Source: a phage
Reading direction: 5' to 3' (one strand)
DNA: 47,149 nt
Sequence record: PZ445406.1
The notes under the pieces were generated by a model, which ran no database searches, was not told where the DNA came from, and saw only the letters and a list, made by a program, of their open reading frames with translations. Of this stretch, positions 4,333 through 45,104 are shown in pieces. How positions within the stretch are numbered: the stretch's first letter is position 1; the number at the start of each line of letters is the position of its first letter. Position numbers and translations under genes: made by a program.

Positions 4333-4731
4333 ATGAATGATGCAATTTTGGCATTTATGCGATCGCTTGTACCTGCGCTCAAGGCAGTGGATGACGAATC
4401 AATTAATGTGTGGATCGATTTGGCACGTCTCTACGTATGTGAGGGTAAGTTTGGTAATGATGCAGATCGCGCTGTGGGCCTTTATGCACTACACCTGATG
4501 CTTGCTGATGGTGCATTTAAGGGTGAGAGTGAAGGGCTGGAAACATACAGTCGCAGAATGGCAAGTTACGCACTGAGCGGTGAATTCTCTATCACTTATG
4601 ATAACCAGTCGGCAATCCAGGGTGACTTATCATCTTCATCGTGGGGCCGTATGTATAAGGCACTCCTCCGCAAGAAAGGTGGAGGCTTTGGGTTGATTAC
4701 TTCCGCTCGTGGCGGTGGGTGCGGTTGCTGA
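4333..4731 (+). CDS. head-tail connector/adaptor protein (putative)
   Basis: ATG 4333 with GGAG SD (track start 4318 is TTG); synteny after capsid gene. Confidence 0.4.
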   Translation: MNDAILAFMRSLVPALKAVDDESINVWIDLARLYVCEGKFGNDADRAVGLYALHLMLADGAFKGESEGLETYSRRMASYALSGEFSITYDNQSAIQGDLSSSSWGRMYKALLRKKGGGFGLITSARGGGCGC

Positions 4732-5532: not shown

Positions 5533-5923
5533 ATTATCATTAGCAGCAAGGAAATTCGTCAACGATTTGTTGGTAAATGAATTTCCGGTCAGGTATCCAG
5601 TTGCGTGGGAGAATGCTGCATTCACTCCTCCGGCTGATGGCTCAATCTGGCTTAAGTACGACTACACAGAAGCTGACACGGTAACCTATGGCCTGAGCAG
5701 GAAGTGCAAATACTACTTAGGCATGGTCCAGATTTCTGTTTTCTTCAGCCCGGGCACTGGAGTTGATAAGCCTAGGCAAATCGCTAATCAATTGGCAGAA
5801 TCTATCGTTGATGGTACAATGCTTGACAGCGGGACCATTTATGAGTCTGGAGTTGTTAACCCGGTTATCAAATCCAAATCTGGGTGGTTTATCCCGGTTC
5901 GTTTTTATGTTCGTCTAGACTAA
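5522..5923 (+). CDS. tail terminator/completion protein (putative)
   Basis: GTG start with GGAGG SD 8 nt upstream; overlaps upstream stop; directly precedes major tail gene. Confidence 0.4.
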   Translation: MQYELSLAARKFVNDLLVNEFPVRYPVAWENAAFTPPADGSIWLKYDYTEADTVTYGLSRKCKYYLGMVQISVFFSPGTGVDKPRQIANQLAESIVDGTMLDSGTIYESGVVNPVIKSKSGWFIPVRFYVRLD

Positions 5924-7663: not shown

Positions 7664-10639
7664 ATGGCAACAAATGAATTAGCCGGAATCACGCTAGCCG
7701 TAGACGTATCGCAGGTAGATAGGGGAACGCAATCCCTACAGAAGTTCAGGCAGGCTAACCAACAGGCCGCTTCCGGGATTAGTGAATTCATAAACGCTGA
7801 GCAGGTTGCTAAAAACCAGGCGAGAGATACAGCTCGCGCACTTGCTGAGCAACAGGCATCACTGGCTAAGCTGCAAACTGCGATTGATCCAACTGCGGCA
7901 AAGTTCCGTAAGCTGCAAGAGGCGGCCGTAGGTCTTGATAAGGCGTTCGCTGCTGGCGTAGTTCCTGATGAGGAATTTTTCCGATTAGGTGAGGCTCTTG
8001 AAACGCAGAATGCAAAACTTGCGCGTTCACGCGCAGCTTTAACCGAGGAGGGGAGGGCGGCGGCTCAAGCGGCAAAGGAGAAAGCGGCAGCAAAAGCAGC
8101 AGCGGATAGATTTATCGCATCACTTGAGCGACAAGCTCAAGCTGCGACGCTGACTCGTGAGGAGTACTTAAAGCTACAGGCTGCACAGCTTGGTGTTAGT
8201 TCTCAGGCTGCGCCTATTATTGACAGAATCGCTGAGGCTTCAGAGCGAGCAAATGTTCAATTAGCAAACCAAAGCAAGGCTTTTCAGAAGTCCGGGCTAA
8301 GTGCCGGGCAATACAAGAACGCCATTAGCCAACTGCCAGCACAGATTACAGATATTGGAACATCACTTGCTGGTGGCATTCCGATTTGGCTTATTGCAAT
8401 TCAGCAGGGCGGACAAATTAAGGATGCATTCGGAGGTATTGGTAACACATTTAGATTCGCGCTGGCTGCACTAAACCATTTTAATGTTGCTGTTGGCGTT
8501 TTGGGAGGCGCACTCGTCGCTCTCGGTATTGGCGCGGCTCAGGCTGAAAGTGAATTCAGGGCATTGAACTCTGCCATTGCATTCTCAAACAACTCGACAA
8601 TCACTTCAATCTCGCAAATTAGACAGTTGGTTAGCTCTGTTTCTGACGCTACCGGCGCCACCAGAGGACTGGTAACCAGCATCGCAACAAGCCTTGTTGA
8701 GCAAGGAAACCTTACGCTAACGCAGATTGATAAGATTACTAAATCAACAGCAAGATGGGCGCAGTTGACAGGTAAGGATGCAAAGGAGATTACTGGTTAC
8801 TACAACCAGATTGCAAGCGACCCAATCCAGGGTTTAGTTGACTTGGATAAGCGCTTTAACTTCCTCACACAGGGGCAGCTGACGACAATCGAAAACCTGA
8901 GAAAGACAAAGGGGGAGGTCGAGGCCGTTACCGCCGCGATTGATATTTTCAGCAAGTCGCAGGAAGCCAACCTTAACGACATTGCAGCTCAATTAACTCC
9001 ACTTGAGTTAGCATGGAATGACTTCAAGAAGTACATCTCTGATGTCTGGGATGCAATTAGCCGTAGAACACTAGGTGCTTTAAACCTGTTTGTTGACGTA
9101 ATAGCAGGAACAATTGAGCAAATCAGGGTCTTCCTTAACCAGGGTGACGTTCTGATTGGTGAATTCGTAATCAGCGCAACTCAGGCATTGCAGAACATAC
9201 CTGGCCTTGATGGTGTTGGTGATGATGTTATCAAGGGGCAGCAGAAGATTATCGATGCCGCCAAGAAGCAAAACCTTGAGCTAGAGAAGTCCATCAGGGA
9301 GCGAGATGCCAGAATCAGAGAGGGAGAGCTTGGTTACGTTAATCGCAGAGAGAATCAGAATACCAATGAGCAATCAGGGACCGATGAGGAATTCGCAAAA
9401 AGGAAGAAGGCACTTCAGGATGAGCTTGACGCGATCAAGAAAAACAGGAAAGAGGAAAATGGGAGGGTTAATGAGCAAAGGGATTTAACAATAGGTTATG
9501 AATCTGGCGTTCTGGCACTTCAGGCTCAACTCAAGGTTCTTCAGGAAAATCGGGATATTGGCGCAGTAATAAGCAATGAGCGCAAGCAGTATCTTCAGGA
9601 GGAGGCTAAATTCAGGATCCTTGAGCAGAGGCAGCTTGATGGCTCGATTACCAAAGAGCAAGCGAGACTTATCGTTGAAAAGGACAAAGTTCTTGAGTTG
9701 GCCAAGCAGAAGGCTGAACTAGGTGATCAGATTGTTTTGCAGGAGCGCGCCAATAAGTTAGCTGAAGATAACCGCAAGAAGATTCTTCAGATTAACAATG
9801 AGGCAAATAACATTGATTTAGGCGCTGGATTGTCATCTCGAGAGCAGCAGAGAGCCAAAGAGATTCAGGCCCTCCAGTCCAATCAGGTTAATGCTGGTGG
9901 CGCACTTGATGACGTGGATTTTCAGCAACTCCTCGAAGCAAGACGCAACTTTTACGCTCAGGAGGATGCGCTACGTGAAAACTGGCTCGCTGGCGTGAAT
10001 CAATCCTTTGCCAATTGGGCTGAGAGCGCTAAGGATGCATTCTCAATTGCTGGAAGTTTAACCACAACAGTCTTTGAGGGCATTACCGACCAGATTACAA
10101 ACCTTGTAACAACTGGCGAGACAAACTTCAGGGAGTTTACTGTAAGCATCCTTAAGCAGATTGCTAAGATTGCGGCTCAGCTTCTTGTTGTCAAGGCAAT
10201 TGAGTCTAGCTTAAGTAGCTTCGGTGGCACTGGTGGCGCTATTGGTTCAATTGCCTCAGCTATAGGTTTTGCTGGTGGCGGCTACACTGGTGATGGCGGG
10301 AAGTATCAGCCAGCAGGAACCGTACACCGCGGTGAGTTTGTATTCACAAAAGAAGCAACAAGCCGAATTGGTGTTAAGAACCTTTACGCGCTAATGAAGG
10401 GATACGCAAACGGTGGCGCTGTAGGTGGTCCATCTGGTTATGCTAATGGCGGTTTGGTTTCTGGTGGGTCAGATGTTAATGTTAGTGGCATCACCGTTAA
10501 CGTTAATGGTGGCGTTGGTAGCGACCCAGAACAGGCCAAGGCATTGCAGAGTGGCGTTAAGGCTATCGTTGCGGAAGAAATTGCTCAGTCTTTCCAGCAG
10601 GGTGGAAAAGCGTATGCCTACCTGAGGGGCTTTAACTAA
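7664..10639 (+). CDS. tail tape measure protein
   Basis: 991 aa, Ala/Gln-rich coiled coils, Gly-rich C-terminus; position after chaperone. Confidence 0.8.
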
Positions 10640-10682
10640 TAGCACTAAATGGTAAAGCCAAAAGGATTTGGCTTGCTATAAT
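10639..10682 (+). promoter_or_regulatory. phage-type promoter module (drives HNH 10711)
   Basis: ATAGCAC-taaa-TGGTAA, 22-bp spacer, TATAAT; tape measure stop abuts TAGCAC. Confidence 0.5.
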
Positions 10683-13698: not shown

Positions 13699-16600
13699 AT
13701 GGCACAAATGATCAAAACAAACGTGAGGCTTTGTGATATGGCTGAAGAGATTAAGATTTATGGTGCTAAAGGCGGTAGCCAGAAGCAGCATCAACCAGTG
13801 GAGCAGGAAGATAACCTTATTTCACTTAACAAGGTTAAGGTATTGCTTGCGGTTGCTGACGGAGAGGTGGATCCAAACTTCTCAATGAAGGATTTATACC
13901 TTGCTGACGTTCCGGTGCAAAACCAGGATGGTAGCTACAACTACGAAGGTGTTCGCGCTGAGTTCCGTGCTGGCACGCAGTATCAGGACTATATCGCTGG
14001 CCTTGATGGTGCAAACTCAGAGATTCAGGCATCCAGAGAAATCACGAACGATACCCCGTATATCATCGCGGTTAACAATACTCAGCTATCAGCAATTCGA
14101 GTTAAGCTATTTTGGCCTCGACTAGTTAAGCAAGAAAGTAACGGCGACCTGAACGGTACGACATGTGAGTATGCAATTGACCTATCTGTTAATGGTGGAG
14201 TATATCAGGAATACACTCGCGGAGTTGCTAACGGTAAGACAACTACAGGTTACGACCGCAGCATTCGTGTCAACCTTCCGGCAGAGTTTGATAGCGCACT
14301 GGTTCGAATCCGTAAGATTACGCCAGACTCAACTAGTAGCACGCTGGTCAACGGAATGCAGATTACAACCTATCAGGAAGTAATCGACGCTAAATTCCGC
14401 TATCCGCTTACCGCCCTGGTTTATGTTGAGTTTGGCTCTGACTTGTTCCCTAACGGAATCCCAACAATTTCTATAAAGAAGCGCTGGAAGTTGATTCAGG
14501 TACCGACAAACTACGACCCGGAGACGAGAACTTACAGCGGGACATGGAATGGACTGTTCAAAATGGCATGGTCAAACAACCCAGCTTGGGTTCTTTATGA
14601 CTTAGTGACAAACCGCCGATATGGTCTTGACCAGCGAGAACTAGGTGTAGAGATTGATAAGTGGGGTCTTTACGAGGCTGCGCAATTCTGCGACCAGATG
14701 GTGCCGGATGGTAAGGGTGGTTTAGAGCCTCGTTATCTTTGCGATATGGTTGTACAGAACAAGGTTGAGGCCTACACGCTAATTCGTGATATCTGTTCAA
14801 TCTTCCGTGGTCTGACTTTCTATGATGGAGAAAAGATTGGCATCGTAGTTGATAAGCCTCGTAATCCATCATACATCTTCACGAATGATAACGTTGTAAA
14901 CGGATTGTTCAGCCGCACCTTTGCCAGTGATAAGAGTCTTTACACCACTGCAAACGTTCAGTTTGATGATGTTGAGAACAACTATCAGCAGGATGTTGAG
15001 CCAGTTTTTGAACTCGAGGCTACTCGAAGATTTGGCTTTAACCCTGTTGACCTCACGGCTATTGGCTGTACTCGCAGAAGTGAGGCAAACAGGCGCGGCA
15101 GGTGGCTCCTAAAAACCAACCTGAGAAGCGAAACTATCAGCTTCACTACCGGGTTGGAAGGTATGATTCCGATGGTTGGCGAGGTAATTGCGGTCAATGA
15201 CGCTGCATGGTCGAGCAACTATCAGTTAAACCTTTCTGGTCGCATTGAATCAGTTCAGGGATTGCAGGTTTTCACCCCTTTTAAAGTTGACGCAGCGCCT
15301 GGTGACAGAATTCTTCTGAACAAGCCAGACGGAAGTCCAGAGGCAAGAACTATTGCCAGCGTTTCGGAGGATGGAAGAACAATCAACCTTAACACTGCTT
15401 TTAGTTTTGTAGCTCAACCTGACACTGTTTTCGCAATCGATAAGGATAATATCGCGCTTCAACAGTATGTTGTGACCGGGATTCAAAAAGCAGACTCTGA
15501 TGGTTCGGATTCATTTCAGTATACGATTACAGCAGTAGAGTATGACCCGAACAAGTATGACGAGATTGACTACGGGGTTAACATTGTTGACCGTCCAACT
15601 TCAATTGTGGAACCTGACAGATTGTCGCCGCCCGAGAACTTAACAGTATCAAGCTACAGTAAGGTTGTTCAGGGTTTGTCGGTTGAGACGATGGTTATCG
15701 GATGGGATAAAGCGCCATACGCTAAAACATACAATGTTCAGTGGAGAAAAGAAAATGGCAACTGGATTAACGTACCCAGAACAGCAAGTACAGAGGTTGA
15801 TATTGAGGGCATTTACGCAGGAATCTATGACGTTAGGGTTCGCAGCGTATCAGATACTGAAAACGTATCTGCCTGGTCTGACATTGTAACGGTATCGCTA
15901 ACTGGCAAGATTGGTCGCCCATCTGCGCCTACGGTTATCACGGCTTCAACTGATGAGGTATTTGGAATTCGTGTTAAGTGGGGTTTCCCTGAAGGATCCG
16001 GTGACACTGCTTACACTGAACTTCAGCAGGTCGCTGATAATGGTGACGGCACTTACAATCCTGATAACGCAAGTTTGCTTACGTTACTGCCGTACCCAGC
16101 ATATGAATACTGGCACACGCCAATTCAGCCAGGAAAGGTTATCTGGTATCGCGCTAGATTGATCGACAGAATAGGTAATACCTCTGATTGGTCTGACTTT
16201 GCTAGAGGTATGAGCACTGACGATGCCAACATCATCAACGATTACATCAAAGTTGATATTGAAGGCTCAGAAGGATTCAAATATCTCGAGCAGAATGCGA
16301 TTCAAAAGAATCAGGACATTCAGAATCAAGCTGAGGCAATTATCGAGAACGCATTAGCTAATGACACTGATGTTCGTCGCATGACTAAGGAGAACGGAAA
16401 ACGTAAGGCTGAATATGTTCAGGCAGTGAATCTCATAGCTGATGAAACTCAGGCGCGTGTGGAGGCTCTCACGGCCCTTAAAGCACAGATAGATGATGAG
16501 ATTGTTGGTCAGATTACGACTATTGAAACGGCGCTGGCTACAGAGACTGAAGCTAGAGCTACGGCTGACACTCAGCTATCAGCAAGGATTGGTGATAACG

Positions 16601-19059: not shown

Positions 19060-19442
19060 TTTACAATCCTCTCTCGTTGTTTGTGCGACTAACTATACCA
19101 GGTTTTGCGTCTGAGTTTTAGCTATTCGTGCTATTGCATACACGTAACAGATGTAACTTGATGTATACAATCTAATCCGCGGAAAATGATATACGCCAAG
19201 TTACGCATGGTTACGCTATATTTACATTAAAATATCTATATATATCAACCATTTACTCTTATTATTATTATTATATATATTACTGTGTATATCATGTAAC
19301 TACCTCTATAGAGTGTTCCGGTTGCAATTTTAATATCATGTGGATTTATACAGTGTTGCACGGTGCTATACCAATGCACCCTCAGCAATAAATGATATAC
19401 ACGATATACACACTAGTTACATTGAGCTATAGCTGATCTGAG
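19060..19442. repeat. AT-rich divergent control region A with iterons and (TTA)5 microsatellite
   Basis: No credible ORF; tandem GATATACAC x2 at 19394-19411; (TTA)5 at 19259-19273; 19-mer ATATCTATATATATCAACC at 19232-19250 shared with region B. Confidence 0.6.
19092..19134 (-). promoter_or_regulatory. phage-type promoter module (leftward from region A)
   Basis: Minus strand ATAGCACGAATAGCTA, 21-22 bp spacer, TATAGT. Confidence 0.5.
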
Positions 19443-22491: not shown

Positions 22492-22920
22492 ATGCACGTA
22501 ATTACTGGTCAGATTCGCCGCGCTCCGTTCACTAAAGAAGGTCAAAACGCCAATGGTACATGGAAAATGTTTGCTGTTGATTTGAGTGAGAGATACAAGG
22601 ATAAAGATGGGCAGACTCAGTATAGTAACTATCGCGCAGTCTTCTTCGCGAAAGAGTCTATGCTGGATTGGTATAACGAGGCATTTCAAGAAGGTAAAGT
22701 TGTTAGCGTTAGCGCAGATACTCTTTCTGTTGATGTTCGTGATAAAGATGGTAAGACTTACGTAACAATCAACATGAACAACCCTAGACTTGAGTTTAGT
22801 CAGCGAGGTGAAAGTGGTGTTCAGCAGCAACAGCCAAGACAACAGCAGCAACAACCGCAAGCACAACAGCAGAAGCTTCAGCCGCAGCAGCAGCAATTTG
22901 ATGACTCCATTCCATTCTAA
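22492..22920 (+). CDS. ssb: single-stranded DNA-binding protein
   Basis: Gln/Pro-rich linker and acidic C-terminal tip DDSIPF resembling E. coli SSB DDDIPF. Confidence 0.7.
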   Translation: MHVITGQIRRAPFTKEGQNANGTWKMFAVDLSERYKDKDGQTQYSNYRAVFFAKESMLDWYNEAFQEGKVVSVSADTLSVDVRDKDGKTYVTINMNNPRLEFSQRGESGVQQQQPRQQQQQPQAQQQKLQPQQQQFDDSIPF

Positions 22921-22927
22921 TAAAAGA

Positions 22928-22951
22928 TAAAGCCCCTTTCGGGGCTTTTTT
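22928..22951. terminator. bidirectional terminator between ssb and tail fiber gene
   Basis: AAAGCCCC-tttc-GGGGCTTTTTT. Confidence 0.65.
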
Positions 22952-22952
22952 A

Positions 22953-25481
22953 TTAACCTATCTTAGTATAAGTCCATTGGTATGTTGCAGCGCCCTGTGC
23001 AGTTATCCCGACAGTTCTTCCGCTTACATCCATTGAAGTGAAAACGCCAGTTTTTGTAATTGTTATTGATGATGTTGTACCATCAAAAAGTACATCAGCA
23101 ATTACACTATAGTTAGCCCCGGCCCCAGTAACCCAGGTCGAAACCTTGTATAAACCTGCGTTGTTTGGCAACTCAAAAAGACCAGTTGAAACATTAGCCT
23201 GAACAGCCATAGCGCCCTTTCCGGTGTATACACCGTCAGTTTTAAGTCCTAATGATGAATACGTTTGCTTATAACCGCCAACGATCATGCCACCCATTGG
23301 TTCAGTAAACCAGTTCACATTACCCTGACTAACAACCGATATAGCAGGAGAGCCACCTTTAGCTGACTGGAACCTACCGCTCAAAACGTCAATTCTAGAT
23401 GTTGAATCCTGGGCGTAGATAGTTACAGGATACCCACCAGAACCAGTGTAAACCAAGCCGTTATCATTAATATCATCTTCAGATGAGTCAATGATTACAT
23501 GGGAAGTTCCAGACGCCTTGATGTACGAAACAACACCACCGGAACCAGCGCCTGTTGTTCTAACTTCATTCTTCCATGATGTTAGGCCTGAAATCCTGCC
23601 ATTTGAGTTATTAAACCTAATCAGGCAACAATCCTGAGAACCGTTCGTGTCAATAATGTTACCTTCGACGTCCATTCCCAGTATGTTTACGCTATGACTG
23701 TTAATAAAGTTAATTCCAGCACCACCGTAAGAACCAGATGTTGATGATATATTGCTGGCATCCATTGCGCAGTTAATCATCGTCACGCTCATCACTGAAC
23801 CAAATTCATAAGGTGAAATGCAATCTGATGCGTAACAAGTCTCAAGCAATATTGTCGTCCCAGTCGCCTTGATGAATCCCGTCCTGCAATTCCTGGCCCA
23901 AACATTCTGTAACTTAGTTTGGTATGTTCCAGTGGTATCCGTGTAACAGCCCCACGCTCCATGTACCGTGCAATCTTTGATGCATGAATTTTCCAGACCA
24001 GTTGCAGAACCAACATTAGAAACGAAGTTAAATGCTATCTTTTGATCATTCCCTGGTGCTGAGGTAGGCGTAGTGCCTGGGTTATAAAAAATGTAAAGTC
24101 CCTCAATAAACACTTGATACATTCTTATGTTTTGCGCATCACCCTGAACCAGGGCAAACAGGTTAATGTTCCCATCAACTGAGATAAATGCTTGCGCCCT
24201 GTTAATTTGGTCTGTCCCCTCCCCAATAATTCTTGTGCTGTTCCCAATCCTTACCGTCCTGTTAATAAACATAAAACCTTTTGGTATGTATACAGTTTTA
24301 CCGGTATTAACTGCCGCCTGAAGCGCAACTGAGTCAAGTGACTCATTAAGGTTTGATGCAAATGGATAAACAGCCCGTGCAGCCTCAATTGTAGAGAATT
24401 TAGATGACAGCGGAACTAAAGTGCCATTGTTTGTAGCACCAAAATCCATGACGTTAACAAAGTCACCAAGTTTACTTTCCTTGCTCCTTTCTACAGATGA
24501 GGTCAATGTCGATTTGTAATTCATCGAACTGAATCGTGATTGAGCCTCAGTCGTTGAATAAACATCAAGCAGACCCCTTACCCTTAAGGCGCTGGATCCA
24601 CCAGTAGCTCCATCTCCACCAGGAACGCTTAGAAGTTCCCTTACATAAAAATTCCTAGAACCAGTAGCTCCAGTAATGGTAATTTCCGCAACCCTAAAAA
24701 CGGCGTTTGAGGTTGTAGAAGGAGAAATTCTTACTACGTTACTTCCATTAACACCACGCGTCGCAAGAACATCAATACAAATAGTAGTGTTTGTCGCCGG
24801 GAACATTGAACTTAAGGCTGACGGAATGTTAACCATGTTTGCAATTTTGCACTGGTAGCTACCACCTGAATAAAATTGCATTGTCTGCCAGTCAAGGGAT
24901 GTAAGCAGTGGTGTTGTAGTACTTCCTATGCCGTGTTCTGCAAAGTAAGCCACTGCGGCCGTATTCCCAGCTGCATTTATTGCGTTAACGGTTCTGTTGT
25001 ATGAGTTCAGTGCATTATTGCTAGCACCAACGGCAGTTGATGCACTTTCTGCGGCAGAAATTTGACTAGCAAGTGCCTCTGCAGCTCCGGTAGTTGACTG
25101 AGTTGCTAACTGTTCAAATCGAGGCCAATCGAAGGTGTCTTGACCAATAAATTGCAGCAATCCTTCGATGGATGTCTCCTTTGACTGATAGTAACGCAGA
25201 GTCTCAGCAACATTCTGAGCTAAACCCGGAGCGGTAATCCCATCGTGCGCAAGAATCGCGTAACCAGTTCCGGCAGGAACAGTTTCAGAGTTAGGGTTAT
25301 AAACATTAATCTTAGTGTCGCTGACAATTTCCGAGATGGCGTAGATCTTTATCGGGTTAGTTTTGAAAATGATAGTAGCACCTACGCGAATCAGTGTAAG
25401 CGGTGCTTTCCATGTTGTACCAACACCAGTTACCTCTCCATTCGCGGCTAGTGACGCTGTTCCTAAGTCATAAATTGCCAT
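22953..25481 (-). CDS. tail fiber / tailspike protein
   Basis: About 840 aa, Thr/Ser/Gly/Asn-rich; probable ATG at 25481 (track start 25511 is GTG). Confidence 0.6.
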   Translation of the reverse strand: MAIYDLGTASLAANGEVTGVGTTWKAPLTLIRVGATIIFKTNPIKIYAISEIVSDTKINVYNPNSETVPAGTGYAILAHDGITAPGLAQNVAETLRYYQSKETSIEGLLQFIGQDTFDWPRFEQLATQSTTGAAEALASQISAAESASTAVGASNNALNSYNRTVNAINAAGNTAAVAYFAEHGIGSTTTPLLTSLDWQTMQFYSGGSYQCKIANMVNIPSALSSMFPATNTTICIDVLATRGVNGSNVVRISPSTTSNAVFRVAEITITGATGSRNFYVRELLSVPGGDGATGGSSALRVRGLLDVYSTTEAQSRFSSMNYKSTLTSSVERSKESKLGDFVNVMDFGATNNGTLVPLSSKFSTIEAARAVYPFASNLNESLDSVALQAAVNTGKTVYIPKGFMFINRTVRIGNSTRIIGEGTDQINRAQAFISVDGNINLFALVQGDAQNIRMYQVFIEGLYIFYNPGTTPTSAPGNDQKIAFNFVSNVGSATGLENSCIKDCTVHGAWGCYTDTTGTYQTKLQNVWARNCRTGFIKATGTTILLETCYASDCISPYEFGSVMSVTMINCAMDASNISSTSGSYGGAGINFINSHSVNILGMDVEGNIIDTNGSQDCCLIRFNNSNGRISGLTSWKNEVRTTGAGSGGVVSYIKASGTSHVIIDSSEDDINDNGLVYTGSGGYPVTIYAQDSTSRIDVLSGRFQSAKGGSPAISVVSQGNVNWFTEPMGGMIVGGYKQTYSSLGLKTDGVYTGKGAMAVQANVSTGLFELPNNAGLYKVSTWVTGAGANYSVIADVLFDGTTSSITITKTGVFTSMDVSGRTVGITAQGAATYQWTYTKIG

Positions 25482-25522: not shown

Positions 25523-25546
25523 GTTGATTGTAGCATCTTTAGGGCA

Positions 25547-25570
25547 TAAAAAAACCTCCCGAAGGAGGTT
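25547..25570 (-). terminator. intrinsic terminator after primase (minus strand)
   Basis: ACCTCC-cgaa-GGAGGT hairpin with A7 on plus strand (T7 on minus). Confidence 0.55.
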
Positions 25571-26492
25571 AGTCTAGTAATTCGCTTGCTTTATATATTC
25601 TCTTCCTTATGCCTGACTTGAAAAAATTATCATCATTTGGGATTACAACATCAAGATTGCGATCATCAGCAACAGCGAGTAAATCAAAAGCGTGGCGAGT
25701 ACAAGCGATGCGTAACTTGTAGTTTCTAAGCGCGTAAGCAACCATTTCCATGTTGTAACTGGAGTGGCAAACAAGCACGCAGCGGTTGCCAGTAGCAATA
25801 TTGACGCGAACACCATCAATCCAATTATCGACCAGATAAGCGTACTCATCATCCTTAAAGGAACCAATAACAGAAACAGATTGGCGAGTATAATCTTTTG
25901 CAGCATAACTAACATTTCCCTCTTCATTGATAAACATTACATTGCACATTTCTTCTGATATACCTTCACTATAAGCCATAAAGCACGGTACTGCGTGGAT
26001 TAGTTCGCCTGACTTTGCCCTGCCAACATCAAAACCGAACTCACTATAAATACCCTCGTATGTACTTAGCGGCGTTGATTCTACTCTTTCCGTCCTTTCC
26101 ATTATCTCTAGGCATCTTTCGTGGTCAATCTGAGCGCCCATCTTGTAGAGCTGGGTTCTTGATGCTTGCTTATTTGCCTTATTAACAACTTCTACAGGGA
26201 TAAGGTTTAGCCACTCACCGAGAACGTCGATACATTCACTGAATGACTGCCCTCTCATTTTTTGAACCCAGACAATTCCATCTCCCGAGCCGCACTGGTT
26301 GCAGATAATTCCACCGTCACCATCTACACTAACCTTGTTTGTCCACCTTGCCCTATCGTGACCTCCACAATAAATACATGGCTGGTGCTTCTTGGTCTGG
26401 AAGAACTTTGGGTCAGCGCCGCAGATATTGATAAGCGCCTTATCCCACAGGCCGCGCATTCTGGGTAAAACCTCTTTCTTATCGTGGTGCAT
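25569..26492 (-). CDS. DNA primase (zinc-ribbon plus Toprim-like)
   Basis: CIYCGG...CNQCGS zinc-binding motif; terminator on minus strand directly downstream. Confidence 0.55.
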   Translation of the reverse strand: MHHDKKEVLPRMRGLWDKALINICGADPKFFQTKKHQPCIYCGGHDRARWTNKVSVDGDGGIICNQCGSGDGIVWVQKMRGQSFSECIDVLGEWLNLIPVEVVNKANKQASRTQLYKMGAQIDHERCLEIMERTERVESTPLSTYEGIYSEFGFDVGRAKSGELIHAVPCFMAYSEGISEEMCNVMFINEEGNVSYAAKDYTRQSVSVIGSFKDDEYAYLVDNWIDGVRVNIATGNRCVLVCHSSYNMEMVAYALRNYKLRIACTRHAFDLLAVADDRNLDVVIPNDDNFFKSGIRKRIYKASELLD

Positions 26493-26550
26493 ATCAGTCT
26501 ATCTCTTAACAAATAAAAAAGGATGTACCGATTATGGCACATCCAATTCT

Positions 26551-27024
26551 TTACTCTTTAGCTTTTCGTGCTGCTTCGTTGGCGGCCTTGATCTTGCGCC
26601 ATGATCGACACTCTGGCTTGGTGGCTAATTCAGCCTCAGTAACAACGCGCAGCATGTGACGTTTTTTGCATCGTAGTGTAAGCGGTTTTCCGTTACCGTC
26701 GAATTGCAGGTCCGGTCGACAGAATGTAGCGCGAAAACCTTCCCCAGTTCGTTTGTAGTAGTTATGCGACAGTTGAGCGCCACGTGCAGAAATCATACCA
26801 CGCTTAAACCATTCTTCCACGGCCTGAGGAGTTACCTTTAGCTGCTTTGCGATATTCGCCTTTGTGCCGAAGAAATCAAGTAGCATCTCAAGCCGCGCAC
26901 GTAGCCCTGCCCTTACTTCATCTTTTAAAACGTAGTAGCCTGAAGGTCGTTTGCGCTTCTTTTTGTCTTCAGTGCGGACGGTTCCGTTATTCCCGTTAAT
27001 GGTTCGCTTGTCTACTGCATTCAT
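26551..27024 (-). CDS. HTH DNA-binding protein (candidate transcriptional regulator)
   Basis: Basic protein with Cro-like segment IAKQLKVTPQAVEEWFKRG; divergent from helicase promoter. Confidence 0.5.
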   Translation of the reverse strand: MNAVDKRTINGNNGTVRTEDKKKRKRPSGYYVLKDEVRAGLRARLEMLLDFFGTKANIAKQLKVTPQAVEEWFKRGMISARGAQLSHNYYKRTGEGFRATFCRPDLQFDGNGKPLTLRCKKRHMLRVVTEAELATKPECRSWRKIKAANEAARKAKE

Positions 27025-27036
27025 TTCATCACCTCA

Positions 27037-27080
27037 ATAGCATTTTTTGTTAAAAGTCATTCTGGTTTAATGGTATTATT
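27037..27080 (+). promoter_or_regulatory. phage-type promoter module (drives helicase)
   Basis: ATAGCAT-tttt-TTGTTA, 21-22 bp spacer, TATTAT. Confidence 0.45.
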
Positions 27081-27106
27081 GTAATCAATTAAACGCTACA
27101 AGACAA
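27078..27106 (-). promoter_or_regulatory. sigma70-like promoter for HTH gene 26551-27024
   Basis: Minus strand TTGTCT, 17-bp spacer, TACAAT; overlaps helicase promoter back-to-back. Confidence 0.4.
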
Positions 27107-27125
27107 TTTTTATAGGAATTTAGAT

Positions 27126-29120
27126 ATGTTACCTATCGAGAAGCTGGTTGCAAACTTTGATAAAGAAAGAATTAAACAGATTCAGAAAGATTACCAGTTT
27201 GGCGAGATAACCCCTTACGAGTTCCAGTGCGTTACATTTGATGCAATTGGGAAGGCTATTGGCAAGTATGAGGCCCCATTTATCGCAGATCTTTCTGTGT
27301 CTGCTGGTAAGACAATCATTCTTGCCATGATTGGTAAGCGCATGGAGCAATTGGGATTGCCTTACATGGTTCTATCTCGCCAGTCAGAGATAATCAGCCA
27401 GAACTCAGAGGAACTTCGTAACTTCGGCATCCGTAACAGCGTATATTGCGCCGGCCTTAACGTTAAATCAGTTTATTACCCAACCATAGTTGCTAGTGAG
27501 GGCACGGCAGCCAACGGCTTGTTTAAGGGGCTTGGTGACTACGTCCCTGCAGTTATCGCAATAGACGAATGTCACATGGTCGATCACATGGATATTGTAG
27601 AAGCTGAGGAGAACGAAGAAACATTTGAGCAAATGAGCACAAAGAAAGGAGAAATGGTATTTAAAGATGGCGTTAATACCGGATTGCTTGGCACTGGTCG
27701 TGCGCAGTACACGCTAATCATCACCGAAATGAAAAGGCGATGCCGCGAGAAGTACGGTCGCGAGCTTAGAATTTTTGGCCTAACTGGCAGCCCGTATCGA
27801 AATAACGATCACATAGTGGTTAGCAATCCAAATGTTCGTGGATTCTGGCGCAAGACAGTGATTCAGGTGCCAACTAATTACCTTGTTGATTTGGGATTTG
27901 TTGTGCCTACTGTTTATGGCGAGGTTGGCGATTTGGGTTACGATCTTAGTGAGTTTGTGCCCGATGGGAACGATGGCGTGAAGGACTTTGGCAAGAAAGA
28001 AATGGATGCAATGGAAGAGAAAATCCACCAAAGCCAATCCATGACGCAAAAGATTATGCAATTTGCTGCAAAGTTCATGGAGACTCGTAACTCGGCTCTT
28101 GTGACATGTTCTGGTAAGCGTCACTGCGAGGAAGCGGCAGCGTCGCTTCCTGATGGTGTGACATGGGCTATAGTAACTGACTCTACAGGTGAGAAAAAGC
28201 GCCGTGAGATTCTGGCTGATGCATATGAAGGTAAGTATAAATTCATATTTCAGATAGGTTGCCTCACAACCGGCGTTAACGTTCCACCATGGGATACATC
28301 AATCATTCTGCGCAAAGTTGGTAGTATCACGCTTCTTATTCAGCTTTTGGGTAGAGGAATGCGAATTCTTAAGAAGAAGCATAAGGAAATGGGAATGGTT
28401 AAGGATGATCACGTGGTGCTTGACTTTGCTGGTACTCTTGATGACATGGCAGAATTGTACTTTGACCCAATCATAGAAGAAGTTCAGGACCAGAAGTTCA
28501 AATCGTCACGAAAAAGTGGCGACAATCCAAGGGTATGTCCTGCCTGCGGCTATGAGAACTCTCCTTTTGCTCGTCGCTGCAATAACGTAATTGATGGGAA
28601 ACGTTGTGAGCATTTTTTTAAATTTCGCTTGTGCGAAGACATAGAGGACCAGCAGACAAAAGTTACTATTAAGAAAGGTTGTGGTGAGAAGAATGATATT
28701 GCCGCTAAAAACTGCAGGTGCTGTGGCGAGATGCTTATTGACCCTAACGCAAAGTTGTCTGGAAAGATGTATCGACAAGGGGATTGGTTGAGAGTTTACG
28801 GATTCAGTATTGGGTTAACTAAAAACCAAACCGGAATCGTTGCTCGATATGAAATCATGGCTCACAGCGGGGATAGGTTTGTTGCTTACGAAACTTTCTT
28901 TCCAGAGAGTGATCATCGCGTCTGCTCTGTAAAGTGGAAGGCGTTTTGCCAAACCCACATCGCCAACAAAACAGAAGCATTTCGCATCGGAAGACTTCGA
29001 AACACTAAAATGATTATGACCAATGCAAGTCAATTCCGTGAACCTATGAGAGTGACGCACAGAAAAAACCAGAAAGGTCAGGATATTATCGCAAATAAAT
29101 CTTTTACTATGGAGGATTGA
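27126..29120 (+). CDS. SF2 DNA helicase with C-terminal zinc ribbons
   Basis: Walker A-like SAGKT, DECH box, multiple CxxC pairs at C-terminus. Confidence 0.65.
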   Translation: MLPIEKLVANFDKERIKQIQKDYQFGEITPYEFQCVTFDAIGKAIGKYEAPFIADLSVSAGKTIILAMIGKRMEQLGLPYMVLSRQSEIISQNSEELRNFGIRNSVYCAGLNVKSVYYPTIVASEGTAANGLFKGLGDYVPAVIAIDECHMVDHMDIVEAEENEETFEQMSTKKGEMVFKDGVNTGLLGTGRAQYTLIITEMKRRCREKYGRELRIFGLTGSPYRNNDHIVVSNPNVRGFWRKTVIQVPTNYLVDLGFVVPTVYGEVGDLGYDLSEFVPDGNDGVKDFGKKEMDAMEEKIHQSQSMTQKIMQFAAKFMETRNSALVTCSGKRHCEEAAASLPDGVTWAIVTDSTGEKKRREILADAYEGKYKFIFQIGCLTTGVNVPPWDTSIILRKVGSITLLIQLLGRGMRILKKKHKEMGMVKDDHVVLDFAGTLDDMAELYFDPIIEEVQDQKFKSSRKSGDNPRVCPACGYENSPFARRCNNVIDGKRCEHFFKFRLCEDIEDQQTKVTIKKGCGEKNDIAAKNCRCCGEMLIDPNAKLSGKMYRQGDWLRVYGFSIGLTKNQTGIVARYEIMAHSGDRFVAYETFFPESDHRVCSVKWKAFCQTHIANKTEAFRIGRLRNTKMIMTNASQFREPMRVTHRKNQKGQDIIANKSFTMED

Positions 29121-29581: not shown

Positions 29582-29619
29582 TACCCCATCGAAACGAAAC
29601 ACTAAAAGAGAGAAACAAA

Positions 29620-32649: not shown

Positions 32650-32690
32650 TACCACATCGAAACGAAATGAACTAAACGAGGAAACACAAA

Positions 32691-34417: not shown

Positions 34418-36001
34418 TCACCCCAGCAATCTCGGATTAATATAAACTTTATCACCAATCAGGCACGTATAGTTTTTCTCATCAAGCATTGGCAGTAAGT
34501 GATCTTTAATCTTCGTCATCACCCCAGCCTGAGCCTCGAACGGCTTAACCTTGCGCGCTGCCTCATACAATGAACGAACACCAACAACTCCCTTACCGTT
34601 TTTGCCTTGCTTGATCAGGATATCAATAAGCTTATTCATCTCGGCATTGTCTCCAGCGTGACCCGCAGCGTTGGCAGATGATAGATACGTCTTGCTCAGC
34701 TCCTGGAACATAATTACTGCCTCTTGCATGGTGTCTAGCTCAATCTCTCTTGACTTCTGTGGACTTCCACCGTTAGGGTTGAACCAGTTACGCACAGTGT
34801 GAAGAACCGCTGCAATCCTGATGGCCTGTTTATCGAACTTCCCCAACGCGCCGCGCAACATTGTGTGGGAATACTTACCGCCGTCAGCAAGGTGAGGTTC
34901 CATTTCCTGACGAGCGCGGTTTAGGTATTTCATTGCTGAATTACTCACTGTCAACTTTACTTCTTGCTCGTTCATTATTTCGTGAACCAATCGGAAGTAG
35001 TCAGCCTTCAACCCGCCATCAATTGGTTCATAAGTCGATTCGCCATTTTCATCAACGAATACACGCTCACCCAGGAATGACTTTTCACGAACCAAAAGGA
35101 AACGTTCAGATACACCGATACCGCGCGCACCAGCATTCATGATTGCGTTAATTGTTTCGTCTTGCGCAATTACAGAGATGCAGCCCATAGCAACGAAGCT
35201 CATGTTGTTCTCTGCGTTCGCACGGGCGATAGATACGTTACCAGCATCCCATGCTTTAAGCACAAGCTCGCTGTTCGTTTTCTTTGAGCCATCGCCATAC
35301 GTCATGCCAAGAAGTGAATTCACGCTCGTTGCTTCATCCGAGATTACTGCGAAGTTTCCCTGGCGGTTGTTTATTCGGGCCAAGCCTTCAGGCGTAGTGT
35401 CTGATACGGGGAAAACGATATCGCAAAGTTTCTCGAGCTTCTCCTCTAAATCTTCTTTTTCCTCAAATAGTGAAGCCATCTCTGACGGAGATTTTTCCTG
35501 CTTCATCTCTTTGGATAATGCAGATAGTTTGGCCATGATCTTTTTACGCTCACGCTTTCGCACTTCATTCAGTCGCTCAGTCTCGGCAATCATTGGAGCA
35601 ATTGAAAGTGAGTTAATAGCTGATTTACCAGTAGATGGTGGCTGGCTTGTTACGACGTAAAGCGACGTGGGCTGCTGAGTTCCGTGATACTCTACAGTGA
35701 ATCGACCAAGCATAGCAGCGGAAATACACCCCAGGAAGTGCATGTAAGCTGAAGATTCAGGGAACTGAACCGAACGAGCAATGTTGGCTGACAGTTTACC
35801 AACAACATCAATATCATTTCCTAGTGAGATTACAGGATACTTGTCATTGGCAGCGTCAATCTCTACTGGCGCCTTCCAGAATGATTGGGACTGTCGATAG
35901 CCATTAGCATTGATGGCGACACGCAAAGGCGGGAGGTTGTCTGCGGCAGCGATTGCCATAACCTGTTCAACAGATAGTTTATCTTCGTTGAAATCAAACA
36001 T
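34418..36001 (-). CDS. P-loop ATPase (possible replication helicase-like protein)
   Basis: Walker A-like PPSTGKS and Walker B-like VISDEA; coiled-coil insert; termini shared with 39187-39714 protein. Confidence 0.5.
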   Translation of the reverse strand: MFDFNEDKLSVEQVMAIAAADNLPPLRVAINANGYRQSQSFWKAPVEIDAANDKYPVISLGNDIDVVGKLSANIARSVQFPESSAYMHFLGCISAAMLGRFTVEYHGTQQPTSLYVVTSQPPSTGKSAINSLSIAPMIAETERLNEVRKRERKKIMAKLSALSKEMKQEKSPSEMASLFEEKEDLEEKLEKLCDIVFPVSDTTPEGLARINNRQGNFAVISDEATSVNSLLGMTYGDGSKKTNSELVLKAWDAGNVSIARANAENNMSFVAMGCISVIAQDETINAIMNAGARGIGVSERFLLVREKSFLGERVFVDENGESTYEPIDGGLKADYFRLVHEIMNEQEVKLTVSNSAMKYLNRARQEMEPHLADGGKYSHTMLRGALGKFDKQAIRIAAVLHTVRNWFNPNGGSPQKSREIELDTMQEAVIMFQELSKTYLSSANAAGHAGDNAEMNKLIDILIKQGKNGKGVVGVRSLYEAARKVKPFEAQAGVMTKIKDHLLPMLDEKNYTCLIGDKVYINPRLLG

Positions 36002-36075
36002 TACTTCTCTCCGTATTGTTTTTGAGAGGCCATTATATCAACGACCTCTTATAAAGCATTATCAATTTGTGCTAT

Positions 36076-37599: not shown

Positions 37600-37931
37600 T
37601 TTTTCAACTCCGCTTTCTGAACACTTGAAATCTCACCTTTGCTTAACAACCGCCCTTTACTGAACCGATGACAAATGAACTTAACGGAAAAGTAGTCACT
37701 CGGATCGAGCGCCACACGCTTTTCCATGAAGACCTTGCGGCTTGAGGCCAGAAATACTTTGCTGCCTTTCTTACCCACTCTTGATCGCAACAGCTCATAG
37801 GTTGAATCGACAAACTGATACTTAAAGCGCCAGGCTCCGTAAGCCCACAAATACATCCGGCCAGACGGAGTCATGAACCTGGTCTTTCCGTCAGTTGCGT
37901 CCTTCCAGACAACTCCGTAAACAATGCTCAT
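37596..37931 (-). CDS. hypothetical protein
   Basis: First leftward gene from control region B; phage-type promoter and AAAGGAG SD. Confidence 0.5.
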   Translation of the reverse strand: MSIVYGVVWKDATDGKTRFMTPSGRMYLWAYGAWRFKYQFVDSTYELLRSRVGKKGSKVFLASSRKVFMEKRVALDPSDYFSVKFICHRFSKGRLLSKGEISSVQKAELKK

Positions 37932-37964
37932 TTATTTCTCCTTTCCTCTCGTTTCTAGGACTGA

Positions 37965-38009
37965 ATCATAGCAACCAACCACTGATAGGTCATTAGCAAA
38001 AAGTGCTAT
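37965..38009 (-). promoter_or_regulatory. phage-type promoter module (leftward from region B)
   Basis: Minus strand ATAGCAC-tttt-TGCTAA, 22-bp spacer, TATGAT. Confidence 0.5.
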
Positions 38010-38569
38010 TCGTTAGATTTATGGATTGTTGCAGATATTGAAATTATTATCATGATTATTGCACATATAGCAATATTGCTTCAGATGCAATGATGTTTTT
38101 GATTGTTGCGGATTGAGCAATGAAGTGGTGGGGGAGTGAATGAAAGATGGATGGACTAACATACAAGTTGATTTTGACTCCCGATAACCTATCCTGTGGT
38201 ATACACGTAACCGCCGTATACTCAGTGTCGTCACAAAAGTTAGTGGACACTAACCTACGTTTTTTACGCCAATATACACTCGATATACAATATAATATCT
38301 ATATATATCAACCTTTTACTTTATTATTATTATTATTATTATATATATGTATACCGTGTATACCGGTCATGGATGGAATAGTTGATATGTTCCGCGCAGA
38401 TATTCTGACACTTGTCAGAAAGGGATGACATTGTAGGAATAAAAAGGCACATATATAGGAAATATCCTCAAAAATCTGTACACAGTGGATACGGCAGGTT
38501 TACAACCAGTGCCGGAGCGGGCTTGAGAGGCAAAATGCGTATCCATGATAAAATATACTAAAATATACA

Positions 38570-38598
38570 TTGACCGACACGTAAATAGGTGGCAATAT
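38570..38598 (+). promoter_or_regulatory. sigma70-like promoter (rightward from region B)
   Basis: TTGACC, 17-18 bp spacer, CAATAT/AATATA; leader CACTGAAACGAAG follows. Confidence 0.4.
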
Positions 38599-38638
38599 AG
38601 CAATCACTGAAACGAAGTAAACCAAACGAGGTATTAAC

Positions 38639-39187
38639 ATGCAGAAAGTAACACTAGGTGAAGTTATCCGCGAGATGGTTCGTAACGCGATGGCGTCTGA
38701 TGGTGGTGAATTCAAAGTTCCGGTTAGCCAGATATTCAAGCTGGTTCGCGGGAAAGAATACCCTGAGATGCGGTATGATGAGGATACCAGTGAGATCCTA
38801 AACCTTGCAGATAGGGCGATGCCGGAACTAAAGAACTCATACATTTATAATACGGTTTCGAGAATGACCGAGCTTCGAGATGCAAACAAGCGAGCGCGCT
38901 ATAAGTTCATCTGGATTGATGAGGATGGCGAGCAGGTAAGCCCTGGTAGCTTCGATGGTGATGGCGCCGATAAATACCTGGTAATATACATTGAGGACGG
39001 CGCGCACTGGACTGGAAGTCGCGAGAAGAAAAAGCAGGAATCGGAGAGGGAGGCAGCAACCATTGAAAGGTTTAAATCTCGATTGCTCAAGCTGTCACCT
39101 AGCGTCGCTGGGCTGGAAGGTGATGAACTTAAGGGTGCTGTTGCAATGATTAATGCTTATCAGGAAATGATTAAGGAAACCAAATAA
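38639..39187 (+). CDS. hypothetical protein (first rightward early gene)
   Basis: sigma70-like promoter and conserved leader upstream. Confidence 0.5.
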   Translation: MQKVTLGEVIREMVRNAMASDGGEFKVPVSQIFKLVRGKEYPEMRYDEDTSEILNLADRAMPELKNSYIYNTVSRMTELRDANKRARYKFIWIDEDGEQVSPGSFDGDGADKYLVIYIEDGAHWTGSREKKKQESEREAATIERFKSRLLKLSPSVAGLEGDELKGAVAMINAYQEMIKETK

Positions 39188-41548: not shown

Positions 41549-41691
41549 TTTACATCCACACTTACTACACTGGCAAGTTCAATAGCGTTAAGCACGTTCG
41601 GGTTTATGAGGATTTTAAAGAAGCATTCAAGCAGCAGGAGGTTCTTGGTGGAGTTGTCCAGGAATGTGAAATTCTAGAAGAATACAAATAG
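41545..41691 (+). CDS. hypothetical 48-aa protein
   Basis: ATGA overlap; stop TAG is part of next promoter TAGCAC; not in ORF track. Confidence 0.35.
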   Translation: MIYIHTYYTGKFNSVKHVRVYEDFKEAFKQQEVLGGVVQECEILEEYK

Positions 41692-41731
41692 CACTAATTG
41701 TTAAAACAACATTGGGGTAATTTGATATAGT
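41688..41731 (+). promoter_or_regulatory. phage-type promoter module
   Basis: ATAGCAC-taat-TGTTAA, 22-bp spacer, TATAGT, leader TTACCCCATCGAAACGAA. Confidence 0.55.
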
Positions 41732-41761
41732 TACCCCATCGAAACGAATGAGGACAAACAG

Positions 41762-44557: not shown

Positions 44558-45064
44558 ATGAGCAAAGCAGCATTAAAGATGGGTGAGGGAAATTTCAAGG
44601 CACTCTACAACAAGAAGTATGGCGATATTGCTATGGTGGCAATCAACCGTAAGTATACGCCTGAGGAGGTTTTCGATTTCGCAGTGAGATACTTCTCCTG
44701 GGCTGAGGGTGAGGCAATTAAAGCCATTGAGACGGCGGCATTCCGGGGTGTGGTTAGTGAGAGCTTAGTGCACAAGCCTAGAGTGTTCACATTAACCGGC
44801 CTGGCACTATTCATGGGTGTTAACATCAATAGATTCGCTCGTTGGCGTGCTGAGGCTGGATACTCTGACGTGATGGAATTCATTGATAACGTAATCTACG
44901 AACAGAAATATCAGCTCTGCGTTGCAGGCATTATCAACTCCACCATTGTTGGTAAAGAGCTTGGCATTGATAAGCCGCAGGAGATCACCATTAGCAACAA
45001 CTCCACAGCCAACGACGTTGATAGCATGAAGGAAGCGCTTGAGTCTGTTATTGGTAAGTTGTAG
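44558..45064 (+). CDS. terminase small subunit (putative)
   Basis: 168 aa; position upstream of terL with an HNH gene between; call by synteny only. Confidence 0.45.
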   Translation: MSKAALKMGEGNFKALYNKKYGDIAMVAINRKYTPEEVFDFAVRYFSWAEGEAIKAIETAAFRGVVSESLVHKPRVFTLTGLALFMGVNINRFARWRAEAGYSDVMEFIDNVIYEQKYQLCVAGIINSTIVGKELGIDKPQEITISNNSTANDVDSMKEALESVIGKL

Positions 45065-45104
45065 CACTTATTGTTAAAAGAAGAGCCCCAATCAGTGAGA
45101 TAAT
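45061..45104 (+). promoter_or_regulatory. phage-type promoter module (drives HNH 45133)
   Basis: TAGCAC-ttat-TGTTAA, 22-bp spacer, GATAAT; terS stop TAG is part of TAGCAC. Confidence 0.45.

Follow-up and report, generated by a model that had tools for sequence, protein, structure and literature searches.

The 47,149-bp window analyzed here corresponds to the entire genome of Escherichia phage JeanPiccard (Bas02, MZ501080.1; Drexlerviridae, Braunvirinae), circularly permuted with respect to that record (record coordinate = window coordinate + 2592). We observe that many of its promoters carry a repeated element which fits, position by position, the marbox, the site of the host activators MarA, SoxS and Rob. 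One of these promoters, in front of the helicase gene, overlaps the promoter of a leftward gene encoding a 157-amino-acid helix-turn-helix (HTH) protein, referred to below as the regulator, which had been proposed (the original prediction) to read the element as an operator and to control its own synthesis. The recognition helix of this protein varies across its family, whereas the element does not. We propose that host activators of the MarA/SoxS/Rob type read the element, that the HTH protein is not its reader, and that the genes for the HTH protein and the lateral tail fibre are on when the marbox factor is limiting. Both the identity of the binding protein and the role of the HTH protein are what we infer from sequence comparisons, and we regard this proposal as evenly poised between right and wrong. 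A consensus host marbox serving as the promoter element of a whole phage family would be unexpected, and no report of one was found in the literature searched.

A repeated promoter element that matches the host marbox

The pattern ATAGCACnnnTTGYTAAA occurs 20 times in the window with at most two mismatches. A looser pattern gives 24 matches, compared to 3.6+/-1.8 in shuffled sequences, and a dyad pattern gives 42, compared to 8.1+/-3.9. All but one of the 20 copies face a gene, with a -10-like hexamer 19-21 nt further on. In seven genomes (JeanPiccard, T1, KP1801, GS166, JLBYU38, Vc1, and Motto) we count 127 copies; 96 of these have their -10 at offset 20 and another 11 at offset 19. A G at -14, indicative of an extended -10, is present in 83% of the promoters; they lack a -35 signal, and CA is conserved at the position inferred to be +1. 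The TTGCTA of the element was considered as a -35 hexamer and ruled out because 22 nt separate it from the -10. Outside these genomes, a scan of IMG/VR returned mostly Drexlerviridae contigs of 45-53 kb, the singletons found elsewhere being at chance level.

The two arms of the element, separated by 5 nt, form a dyad of 5+5 bp and are both perfect in 8 of the 20 window copies. A search with a 6-nt arm spacing, which differs from the true spacer, found nothing relevant. The consensus, ATAGCAC[G/T][A/T][A/T]TTG[C/T]TAAA, is variable at positions 8-10 and 14, and several conserved positions depart from the dyad (C7 versus T11, A1 versus A17). Moreover, position 4 is G without exception, whereas C and T are about equally frequent at position 14, with which it pairs in the dyad. 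The palindromic operator that had been predicted in phage-type promoters is thus a real motif, far above chance, but it is palindromic only in part and its asymmetry is conserved. This asymmetry suggests that a monomeric reader with two HTH motifs fits the element better than a symmetric dimer.

Two published descriptions of the marbox, the MarA consensus GCAHWWWWTGYYAAA (PMC6900184) and the CACG/CACT-N7-AAA rule (PMC8811837), both fit the phage consensus position by position. When the phage consensus is compared with AYnGCACnnWnnRYYAAAY, or GCAHWWWWTGYYAAA, every specified position fits except Y19, and the positions variable in the phage (8-10 and 14) are those degenerate in the marbox. The geometry agrees as well. 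In the Escherichia coli micF promoter, the marbox ACAGCACTGAATGTCAAAAC is followed by 18 nt, the hexamer TAGAAT, and then the 5' end of micF. The phage 18-mer plus 20 nt is equivalent to a 20-mer plus 18 nt to the -10, so that 96 of the 127 copies have the micF spacing, and they lie in the forward orientation over the -35 region, as in a class II promoter. RamA binds micF at a site whose centre is near -41 (PMC8811837), and the forward orientation and 18-nt spacing place the centre of the phage site near -41 too. In addition, the reverse complement of the mar operon marbox, ATGCCACGTTTTGCTAAATC, is identical to a KP1801 copy at 17 of 20 positions. The probability that sequence, orientation, and spacing would all agree by chance is, by our estimate, <1e-3, even after allowing for the many known motifs.

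The phage promoters therefore share with the class II promoters of the mar/sox/rob regulon, which are bound by monomeric MarA, SoxS, Rob, or RamA (micF being an example), the arrangement A-Y-n-GCAC, 7 nt, AAA, with TG before YY. They differ from host marboxes in being near-consensus, in occurring about 20 times in a 47-kb virulent genome, and in being joined to an extended -10 and a conserved leader; binding of a host protein to them is putative. Positions A3, T11, and A19 are also more constrained in the phage than in host marbox sites.

The regulator is a Cro-type protein with a variable recognition helix

As had been predicted from the sequence, the regulator is a basic HTH protein encoded leftward (Table 1); its isoelectric point is 10.3, with 37 Lys and Arg against 17 Asp and Glu, and GenBank already lists it as 'putative transcriptional regulator'. 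It matches over its full length (residues 1-157, E 5.1e-84) PHROG 2856, the Drexlerviridae 'transcriptional regulator' family that includes Rtp52 and TLS gp57. Residues 48-72 match the Pfam family P22_Cro (PF14549) with an E value of 7.6e-6, although the 26.0 bits, which cover these residues only, are below the gathering threshold of 30.2. A profile made from 43 homologues matches, among solved structures, Cro proteins exclusively. The structure prediction that had been suggested as a check of the HTH assignment bears it out: the AlphaFold2 model is confident (predicted local distance difference test score, pLDDT, of 89), and in Foldseek its core resembles all-alpha Cro proteins, with target-normalised template modelling (TM) scores of 0.72-0.74. 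For the basic N-terminal arm and for residues 96-129, by contrast with the core, Foldseek returned no matching structure. Scanning NCBIfam gave nothing beyond weak HTH-level matches to RacR and DicC, and a preprint on a STAND sensor proved to be unrelated to the regulator.

Like the all-alpha Cro proteins of PF14549, namely Xfaso1 Cro (3bd1), P22 Cro (1rzs), and N15 Cro (2hin/6on0), the regulator has an HTH motif that ends in W..RG. Nevertheless, these Cro proteins have about 60-70 residues, compared to 157 in the regulator, whose additional parts are a basic N-terminal arm that hardly varies and a C-terminal extension (96-129) that is conserved. Unlike them, it also comes from a phage that is virulent and has no repressor partner, and no palindromic operator is identified for it. 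Homologues form 113 clusters from 830 phage records, essentially all of them Drexlerviridae, and the protein of Alteromonas phage PB15 shares the HTH alone. All of these features indicate a genuine, conserved Cro-type HTH protein of T1-like phages, already annotated and of known fold. Among the records carrying the gene are 20 labelled 'Campylobacter phage', host labels that look doubtful.

We also considered whether the regulator might itself be a MarA-like protein of the AraC/XylS type. It has no match to the AraC-family (HTH_18) Pfam profile and its fold contains a single Cro-type HTH, which rules this identity out. No phage-encoded MarA/SoxS-like protein was found by phmmer among the 496 open reading frames (ORFs) of the window, the best E value being 1.7, and no second DNA-binding Pfam domain was found among 30 small proteins of the phage.

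According to the original prediction, the regulator would bind the element as a dimer on the palindrome. The comparison of its family argues against this. Across 112 members, the base-contact positions of helix 3 vary, with residue P66 reaching an entropy of 3.6 bits, the highest in the core, and with E70 and E71 varying as well. At least 15 recognition helices are seen (TPQAVEEW, SNQTVQGW, SIQVVQQW, NLKTVWGW, and SHATLYEW, for example), and all of them adjoin essentially one helicase-promoter motif, ATAGCA[C/T]TTTTTG[C/T]TAAA. A hypervariable recognition helix next to an invariant motif, which is itself a dyad of only 5+5 bp, makes it probable that the regulator is not the reader of the motif; the asymmetry, orientation, and spacing of the latter are instead those of a marbox. 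On the other hand, two parts of the protein are near-invariant, the N-terminal arm (D5, R7, N10-T15, R17, D20, R24) and residues 96-119. The conserved arm could still add DNA contacts, so that the original prediction is weakened by the variable helix but keeps some probability.

The overlapping promoters of the regulator and helicase genes

The regulator gene lies between the primase gene, on the same strand, and the helicase gene, on the opposite strand. The sigma70-like promoter predicted for it, TTGTCT-N17-TACAAT, is found in place and matches the consensus at 9 of 12 positions, which taken alone is no better than chance (7 promoter-like sites, compared to 4.9+/-2.5 in shuffled sequences). 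Its equivalents occur at the corresponding place in T1 (TTGAAT-N17-TATAAT), KP1801 (TTGTCA-N16-TATAAT), and GS166 (TTGACT-N17-TATCAT), and the TLS promoter P57 is identical in sequence to that of GS166. P57 is among just three canonical sigma70 promoters predicted in TLS (PMC11447400).

The back-to-back arrangement with the helicase promoter also holds: the -10 of the regulator and the extended -10 of the helicase promoter overlap by 2 nt on opposite strands. All 79 related loci have the helicase-promoter element at the corresponding position, where it departs from the consensus by three mismatches or fewer. Its 18-mer (27037-27054) lies within the leader of the regulator gene, one base from the Shine-Dalgarno sequence; a palindrome had been expected there, and the motif is indeed present, but with its partial dyad only. 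As the two -10s overlap and the marbox-like element stands in the leader, the helicase promoter, when loaded, should antagonise expression of the regulator. The region with its overlapping -10s is a compact and conserved genetic switch.

On the other side of the regulator gene, an intrinsic terminator follows directly, and the primase gene appears to have a promoter of its own with a degenerate copy of the motif. This copy is inside the 3' end of the regulator ORF, and its CATAAT is in the loop of the terminator hairpin. The same layout is repeated in T1 (35978-35995) and in TLS (DR10 plus T57). Having its own sigma70-type promoter, its own terminator, and a separate primase promoter downstream, the regulator gene would form a monocistronic unit.

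A copy in operator position at the tail-fibre gene

One copy of the element in the window, ATAGCACGATTTGCTAAA, is a perfect consensus with no -10 at the canonical offset, as had been pointed out in support of an operator role. We find that this copy is isolated from any promoter of its own, but not from promoters altogether, since it begins 4 nt downstream of a candidate extended -10 of the lateral tail-fibre gene. It would for that reason cover the inferred start site of this gene, and it probably occupies an operator-type, repressing position. Copies are kept in the same position and orientation in T1 (34902), GS166 (33046), and JLBYU38 (49907), where they lie 5-13 nt downstream of a sigma70-like or extended -10 element.

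Proposed reader of the element and alternatives

The proposal of a host reader can be laid out as follows. The element would act as an asymmetric, directional site of 18-20 bp near -41, replacing the missing -35 in about 19 extended -10 promoters, and a host activator that binds marboxes would recruit sigma70 RNA polymerase to them. Rob is the constitutively abundant candidate, and RamA would be its counterpart in Klebsiella and Salmonella. A loaded helicase promoter would shut out transcription of the HTH gene, and the inverted marbox just downstream of the tail-fibre promoter would likewise repress the tail-fibre gene, so that synthesis of the HTH protein would take place in the absence of the marbox factor or after its titration. 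The target of the HTH protein itself would differ by lineage, this protein being probably a regulator or an origin-binding factor of the primase-helicase module. Tentatively, we extend this proposal to a timer based on host-factor titration, in which nearly all of the early and middle programme would run from consensus sites of MarA, SoxS, and Rob, the host activators of the antibiotic and oxidative stress responses, the copies in leaders would hold back the tail-fibre and Cro-like genes until replicating phage DNA titrates the activator pool, and the Mar/Sox/Rob status of the host would set its susceptibility.

Several points weigh against a host reader. In unstressed cells, MarA and SoxS are present at low levels and most of the Rob is sequestered, and making some 20 promoters dependent on these proteins is not obviously a good strategy for a virulent phage. 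The invariant A3, the invariant T11, and the mostly conserved A19 are not required by the degenerate marbox consensus. We found no report of T1-like phages needing marA, soxS, or rob; searches combining marbox and bacteriophage gave nothing relevant by title, those combining MarA, SoxS, or Rob with phage T1 gave nothing, and no T1 transcriptome was found in the literature searched. The regulator is the sole recognisable DNA-binding protein of the phage in the Pfam and PHROG scans, which included the 30 small proteins, and its near-invariant arm (5-24) and residues 96-119 could in principle be conserved DNA contacts. Finally, the sigma70 promoter and the geometry suited to autoregulation are those expected of a phage-encoded activator.

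Regarding what the regulator binds, an alternative that is compatible with a host reader of the element is an origin- or iteron-binding replication protein, or else a repressor of Cro type that controls the few canonical early promoters, acting on lineage-specific repeats; we consider it possible, if rather doubtful. The repeats would be those of the two largest non-coding regions of the window, 19060-19442 and 37931-38639, which have 9-10 TATAC words per 500 nt (about 10 times the genome-wide average), most frequently in the longer form GATATACAC, and share an AT-rich block of about 60 nt, AATATCTATATATATCAACC.TTTACT.TTATTATTATTATTAT, with (TTA)n. From their composition, both look like origin-type or early-control regions. 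Other lineages have repeats of their own. In T1, CGATTAACA is found three times in tandem at 395-425, in the equivalent non-coding region, and in Webervirus phages the word GTAAGAT recurs about 10 times and also forms a perfect palindrome, GTAAGAT-GC-ATCTTAC (KP1801 22690-23070; loci L029-L084). Such repeats could be the targets of the variable HTH, and their variability would match that of the recognition helix. The location of the regulator gene, always between the primase and helicase genes, is consistent with a replication function, as is the Cro-like gene directly upstream of the primase gene in the unrelated PB15. However, when recognition helices were compared across lineages with the sequences near their own promoter and with the iterons, ATATACA-type words recurred with different helices and no covariation of helix and repeat was demonstrated. 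The promoter of the regulator is without such repeats, no iterons were found around its gene, and the two non-coding regions are themselves only candidate origins.

We consider it unlikely that the regulator itself reads the element, as the original prediction has it. In that case, it would be made first from its sigma70 promoter and would bind the motif either by way of its conserved arm or as a dimer that occupies the TAGCA-N5-TGCTA dyad. It would act as class II activator of the approximately 19 promoters without a -35, and repress its own promoter and that of the tail-fibre gene. The phage has no other recognisable HTH protein and encodes no MarA or SoxS homologue, and each of the 7 genomes and 79 loci examined has both the regulator gene and the motif. 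The half-site centres, 10 bp apart, would suit a Cro-type dimer (ATAGCACGAATTGCTAAA being the predicted binding site), the overlapping -10s offer a ready negative-feedback design, and the gene has an independent sigma70 promoter and terminator, the TLS equivalent of this promoter being among the only three canonical ones predicted there. A phage-encoded factor would also escape dependence on host stress regulators. Against all of this stand the hypervariable recognition helix beside an invariant motif, the canonical contacts being here Pro66, Glu70, and Glu71, the conserved asymmetry of the motif, which argues against a symmetric dimer, and the very low chance, estimated above, that the site of an unrelated protein would match the marbox.

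It is improbable that the motif is read by RNA polymerase itself, through a UP-element-like or otherwise non-canonical contact, or by another unrecognised phage protein, with the HTH protein unrelated to it: a good extended -10 can work without a -35 and about 50 small phage proteins have no assigned function, but ATAGCAC is not A/T-rich like the known UP subsites, promoter-less copies in operator position make no sense for a polymerase contact, and the detailed marbox match is left unexplained. UP-element-like enhancers are nonetheless among the options of the TLS authors (PMC11447400).

Comparison with known phage systems

The element has been noted before. In TLS, a 21-nt 'direct repeat', aaATAGCACnnnTTGnTAAAA, was described, and noted also for T1, Rtp, and Rogue1 (PMC11447400); it agrees with the element studied here in orientation and in its placement before genes, and we take the two to be one and the same. 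Its function was left open, with a stoperator, an enhancer site, or a UP element as suggestions, and it was linked neither to the marbox nor to gp57 (PMC11447400). The fixed distance of 19-20 nt to an extended -10 and the copies in operator position are new with respect to that work.

Concerning the suggested stoperators, those of mycobacteriophage L5 are also asymmetric repeats oriented with transcription, and the copies in the regulator and tail-fibre leaders would, like stoperators, act negatively. Unlike the L5 sites, however, 107 of the 127 copies keep a constant distance of 19-20 nt to a -10 and precede the start site, which indicates that they are parts of promoters and not intragenic roadblocks.

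The middle promoters of T4, which depend on MotA and AsiA, form another phage-wide class; they combine a good -10 with an upstream box that contains TGCT, and they lack a -35. The motA gene is expressed from an early sigma70 promoter, and MotA has a double-wing domain, needs AsiA, and recognizes the box (a/t)(a/t)(a/t)TGCTTtA centred at -30. This activator logic is the one that the original prediction proposed for the regulator. As a candidate identity for the phage promoters, a MotA-dependent middle promoter was rejected, because the motif is centred near -41, with TTGCT at about -40 to -36, compared to -30 for the MotA box; in the Pfam and PHROG scans, no resemblance to MotA or AsiA was recognised in the phage.

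Additional features of the element and its promoters

The -10 hexamer of motif promoters is often located in the loop of an inverted repeat, such as ggggtaa-tttgatatag-ttacccc. The arms of these repeats vary between promoters yet stay complementary, and stems of at least 6 bp are found in 28% of 95 promoters, compared to 1.3% after shuffling. Examples occur in the window (41688-41760 and, on the - strand, 36000-36075), in T1 (3535-3600 and 4344-4410), and in GS166 (2422-2490). Some of these repeats are the terminator of the upstream gene, so that terminator and promoter are fused. The predicted transcripts of the motif promoters also share a start and leader, C-A(+1)-TCGAAACGA, located 7-17 nt downstream of the -10 and before the Shine-Dalgarno sequence (for example at 29587-29598, 32655-32666, and 41737-41748 of the window); this leader could concern promoter escape, translation, or an RNA signal.

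In the structural module of the window, motif promoters at 10639-10656 and 45061-45078 precede both putative homing-endonuclease genes, and these inserts either carried in a phage-type promoter or acquired one. Four genomes share a conserved antisense copy that is located between head genes, immediately 5' of the major capsid gene (T1 15069-15086, GS166 13718-13735, L005 29393-29410, and Vc1 5713-5730, all on the - strand); it could be an antisense promoter or a roadblock, and it is absent from the window at up to three mismatches. In T1, a further copy without a -10 (8362-8379) is directly before the ribosome-binding site of the small terminase gene. The Vibrio phage Vc1 and the Pseudomonas phage Motto carry the same motif arrays and have a GC content of 45%. 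Since their host labels look doubtful, they are unfit as a test in hosts without Rob.

Table 1 Features of the regulator, helicase, primase, and tail-fibre region of the window (position 1 is the first nucleotide of the window).
Feature	Coordinates	Strand	Remarks
Lateral tail-fibre gene	22953..25481	-	Downstream of the promoter-less motif copy
Promoter-less motif copy ATAGCACGATTTGCTAAA	25505..25522	+	Perfect consensus; no -10 at the canonical offset
Candidate extended -10 of the lateral tail-fibre gene	25527..25535	-	TGcTACAAT (25535->25527)
Terminator 3' of the primase gene	25553..25570	-	
DNA primase gene	25569..26492	-	
Intrinsic terminator directly 3' of the regulator gene	26521..26544	-	TLS equivalent is T57
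Candidate primase promoter	26531..26574	-	Degenerate motif GCAGCACGAAAAGCTAAA (26574->26557), 20 nt, CATAAT (26536->26531)
Regulator gene (157-residue basic Cro-fold HTH protein)	26551..27024	-	bas02_0036; homologue of Rtp52 and TLS gp57; PHROG 2856
Shine-Dalgarno sequence of the regulator gene	27030..27035	-	GAGGTG, one base from the motif; read from the sequence
Marbox-like upstream element of the helicase promoter, ATAGCATTTTTTGTTAAAAG	27037..27056	+	Inverted within the 5' leader of the regulator gene
Extended -10 of the helicase promoter	27071..27079	+	TGgTATTAT, 19 nt after the 18-mer
Sigma70-type regulator promoter	27078..27106	-	TTGTCT (27106-27101), N17, TACAAT (27083-27078); consensus scan
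Helicase gene	27126..29120	+	Predicted to be driven by the marbox-type promoter

Implications

The switch between the regulator and helicase genes is worth dissecting whether the host or the phage provides the reader of the element. Should the regulator be the reader, it would represent a novel type of class II activator, based on a Cro fold and serving as master switch of the Drexlerviridae. If, as we propose, the element is a marbox, a repeat known from T1-like genomes and so far without an explanation would be accounted for, and a virulent phage family would be building its promoters from the site of a host stress regulator; this can be checked with existing strains and proteins. The mar/sox/rob regulon, known for antibiotic tolerance, would then be linked to phage infection in Escherichia, Klebsiella, and Salmonella. 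If, in addition, the activator pool acts as a timer through its titration, salicylate, bile, paraquat, and clinical mar mutations would set the susceptibility of the host to a large family of phages used in therapy.

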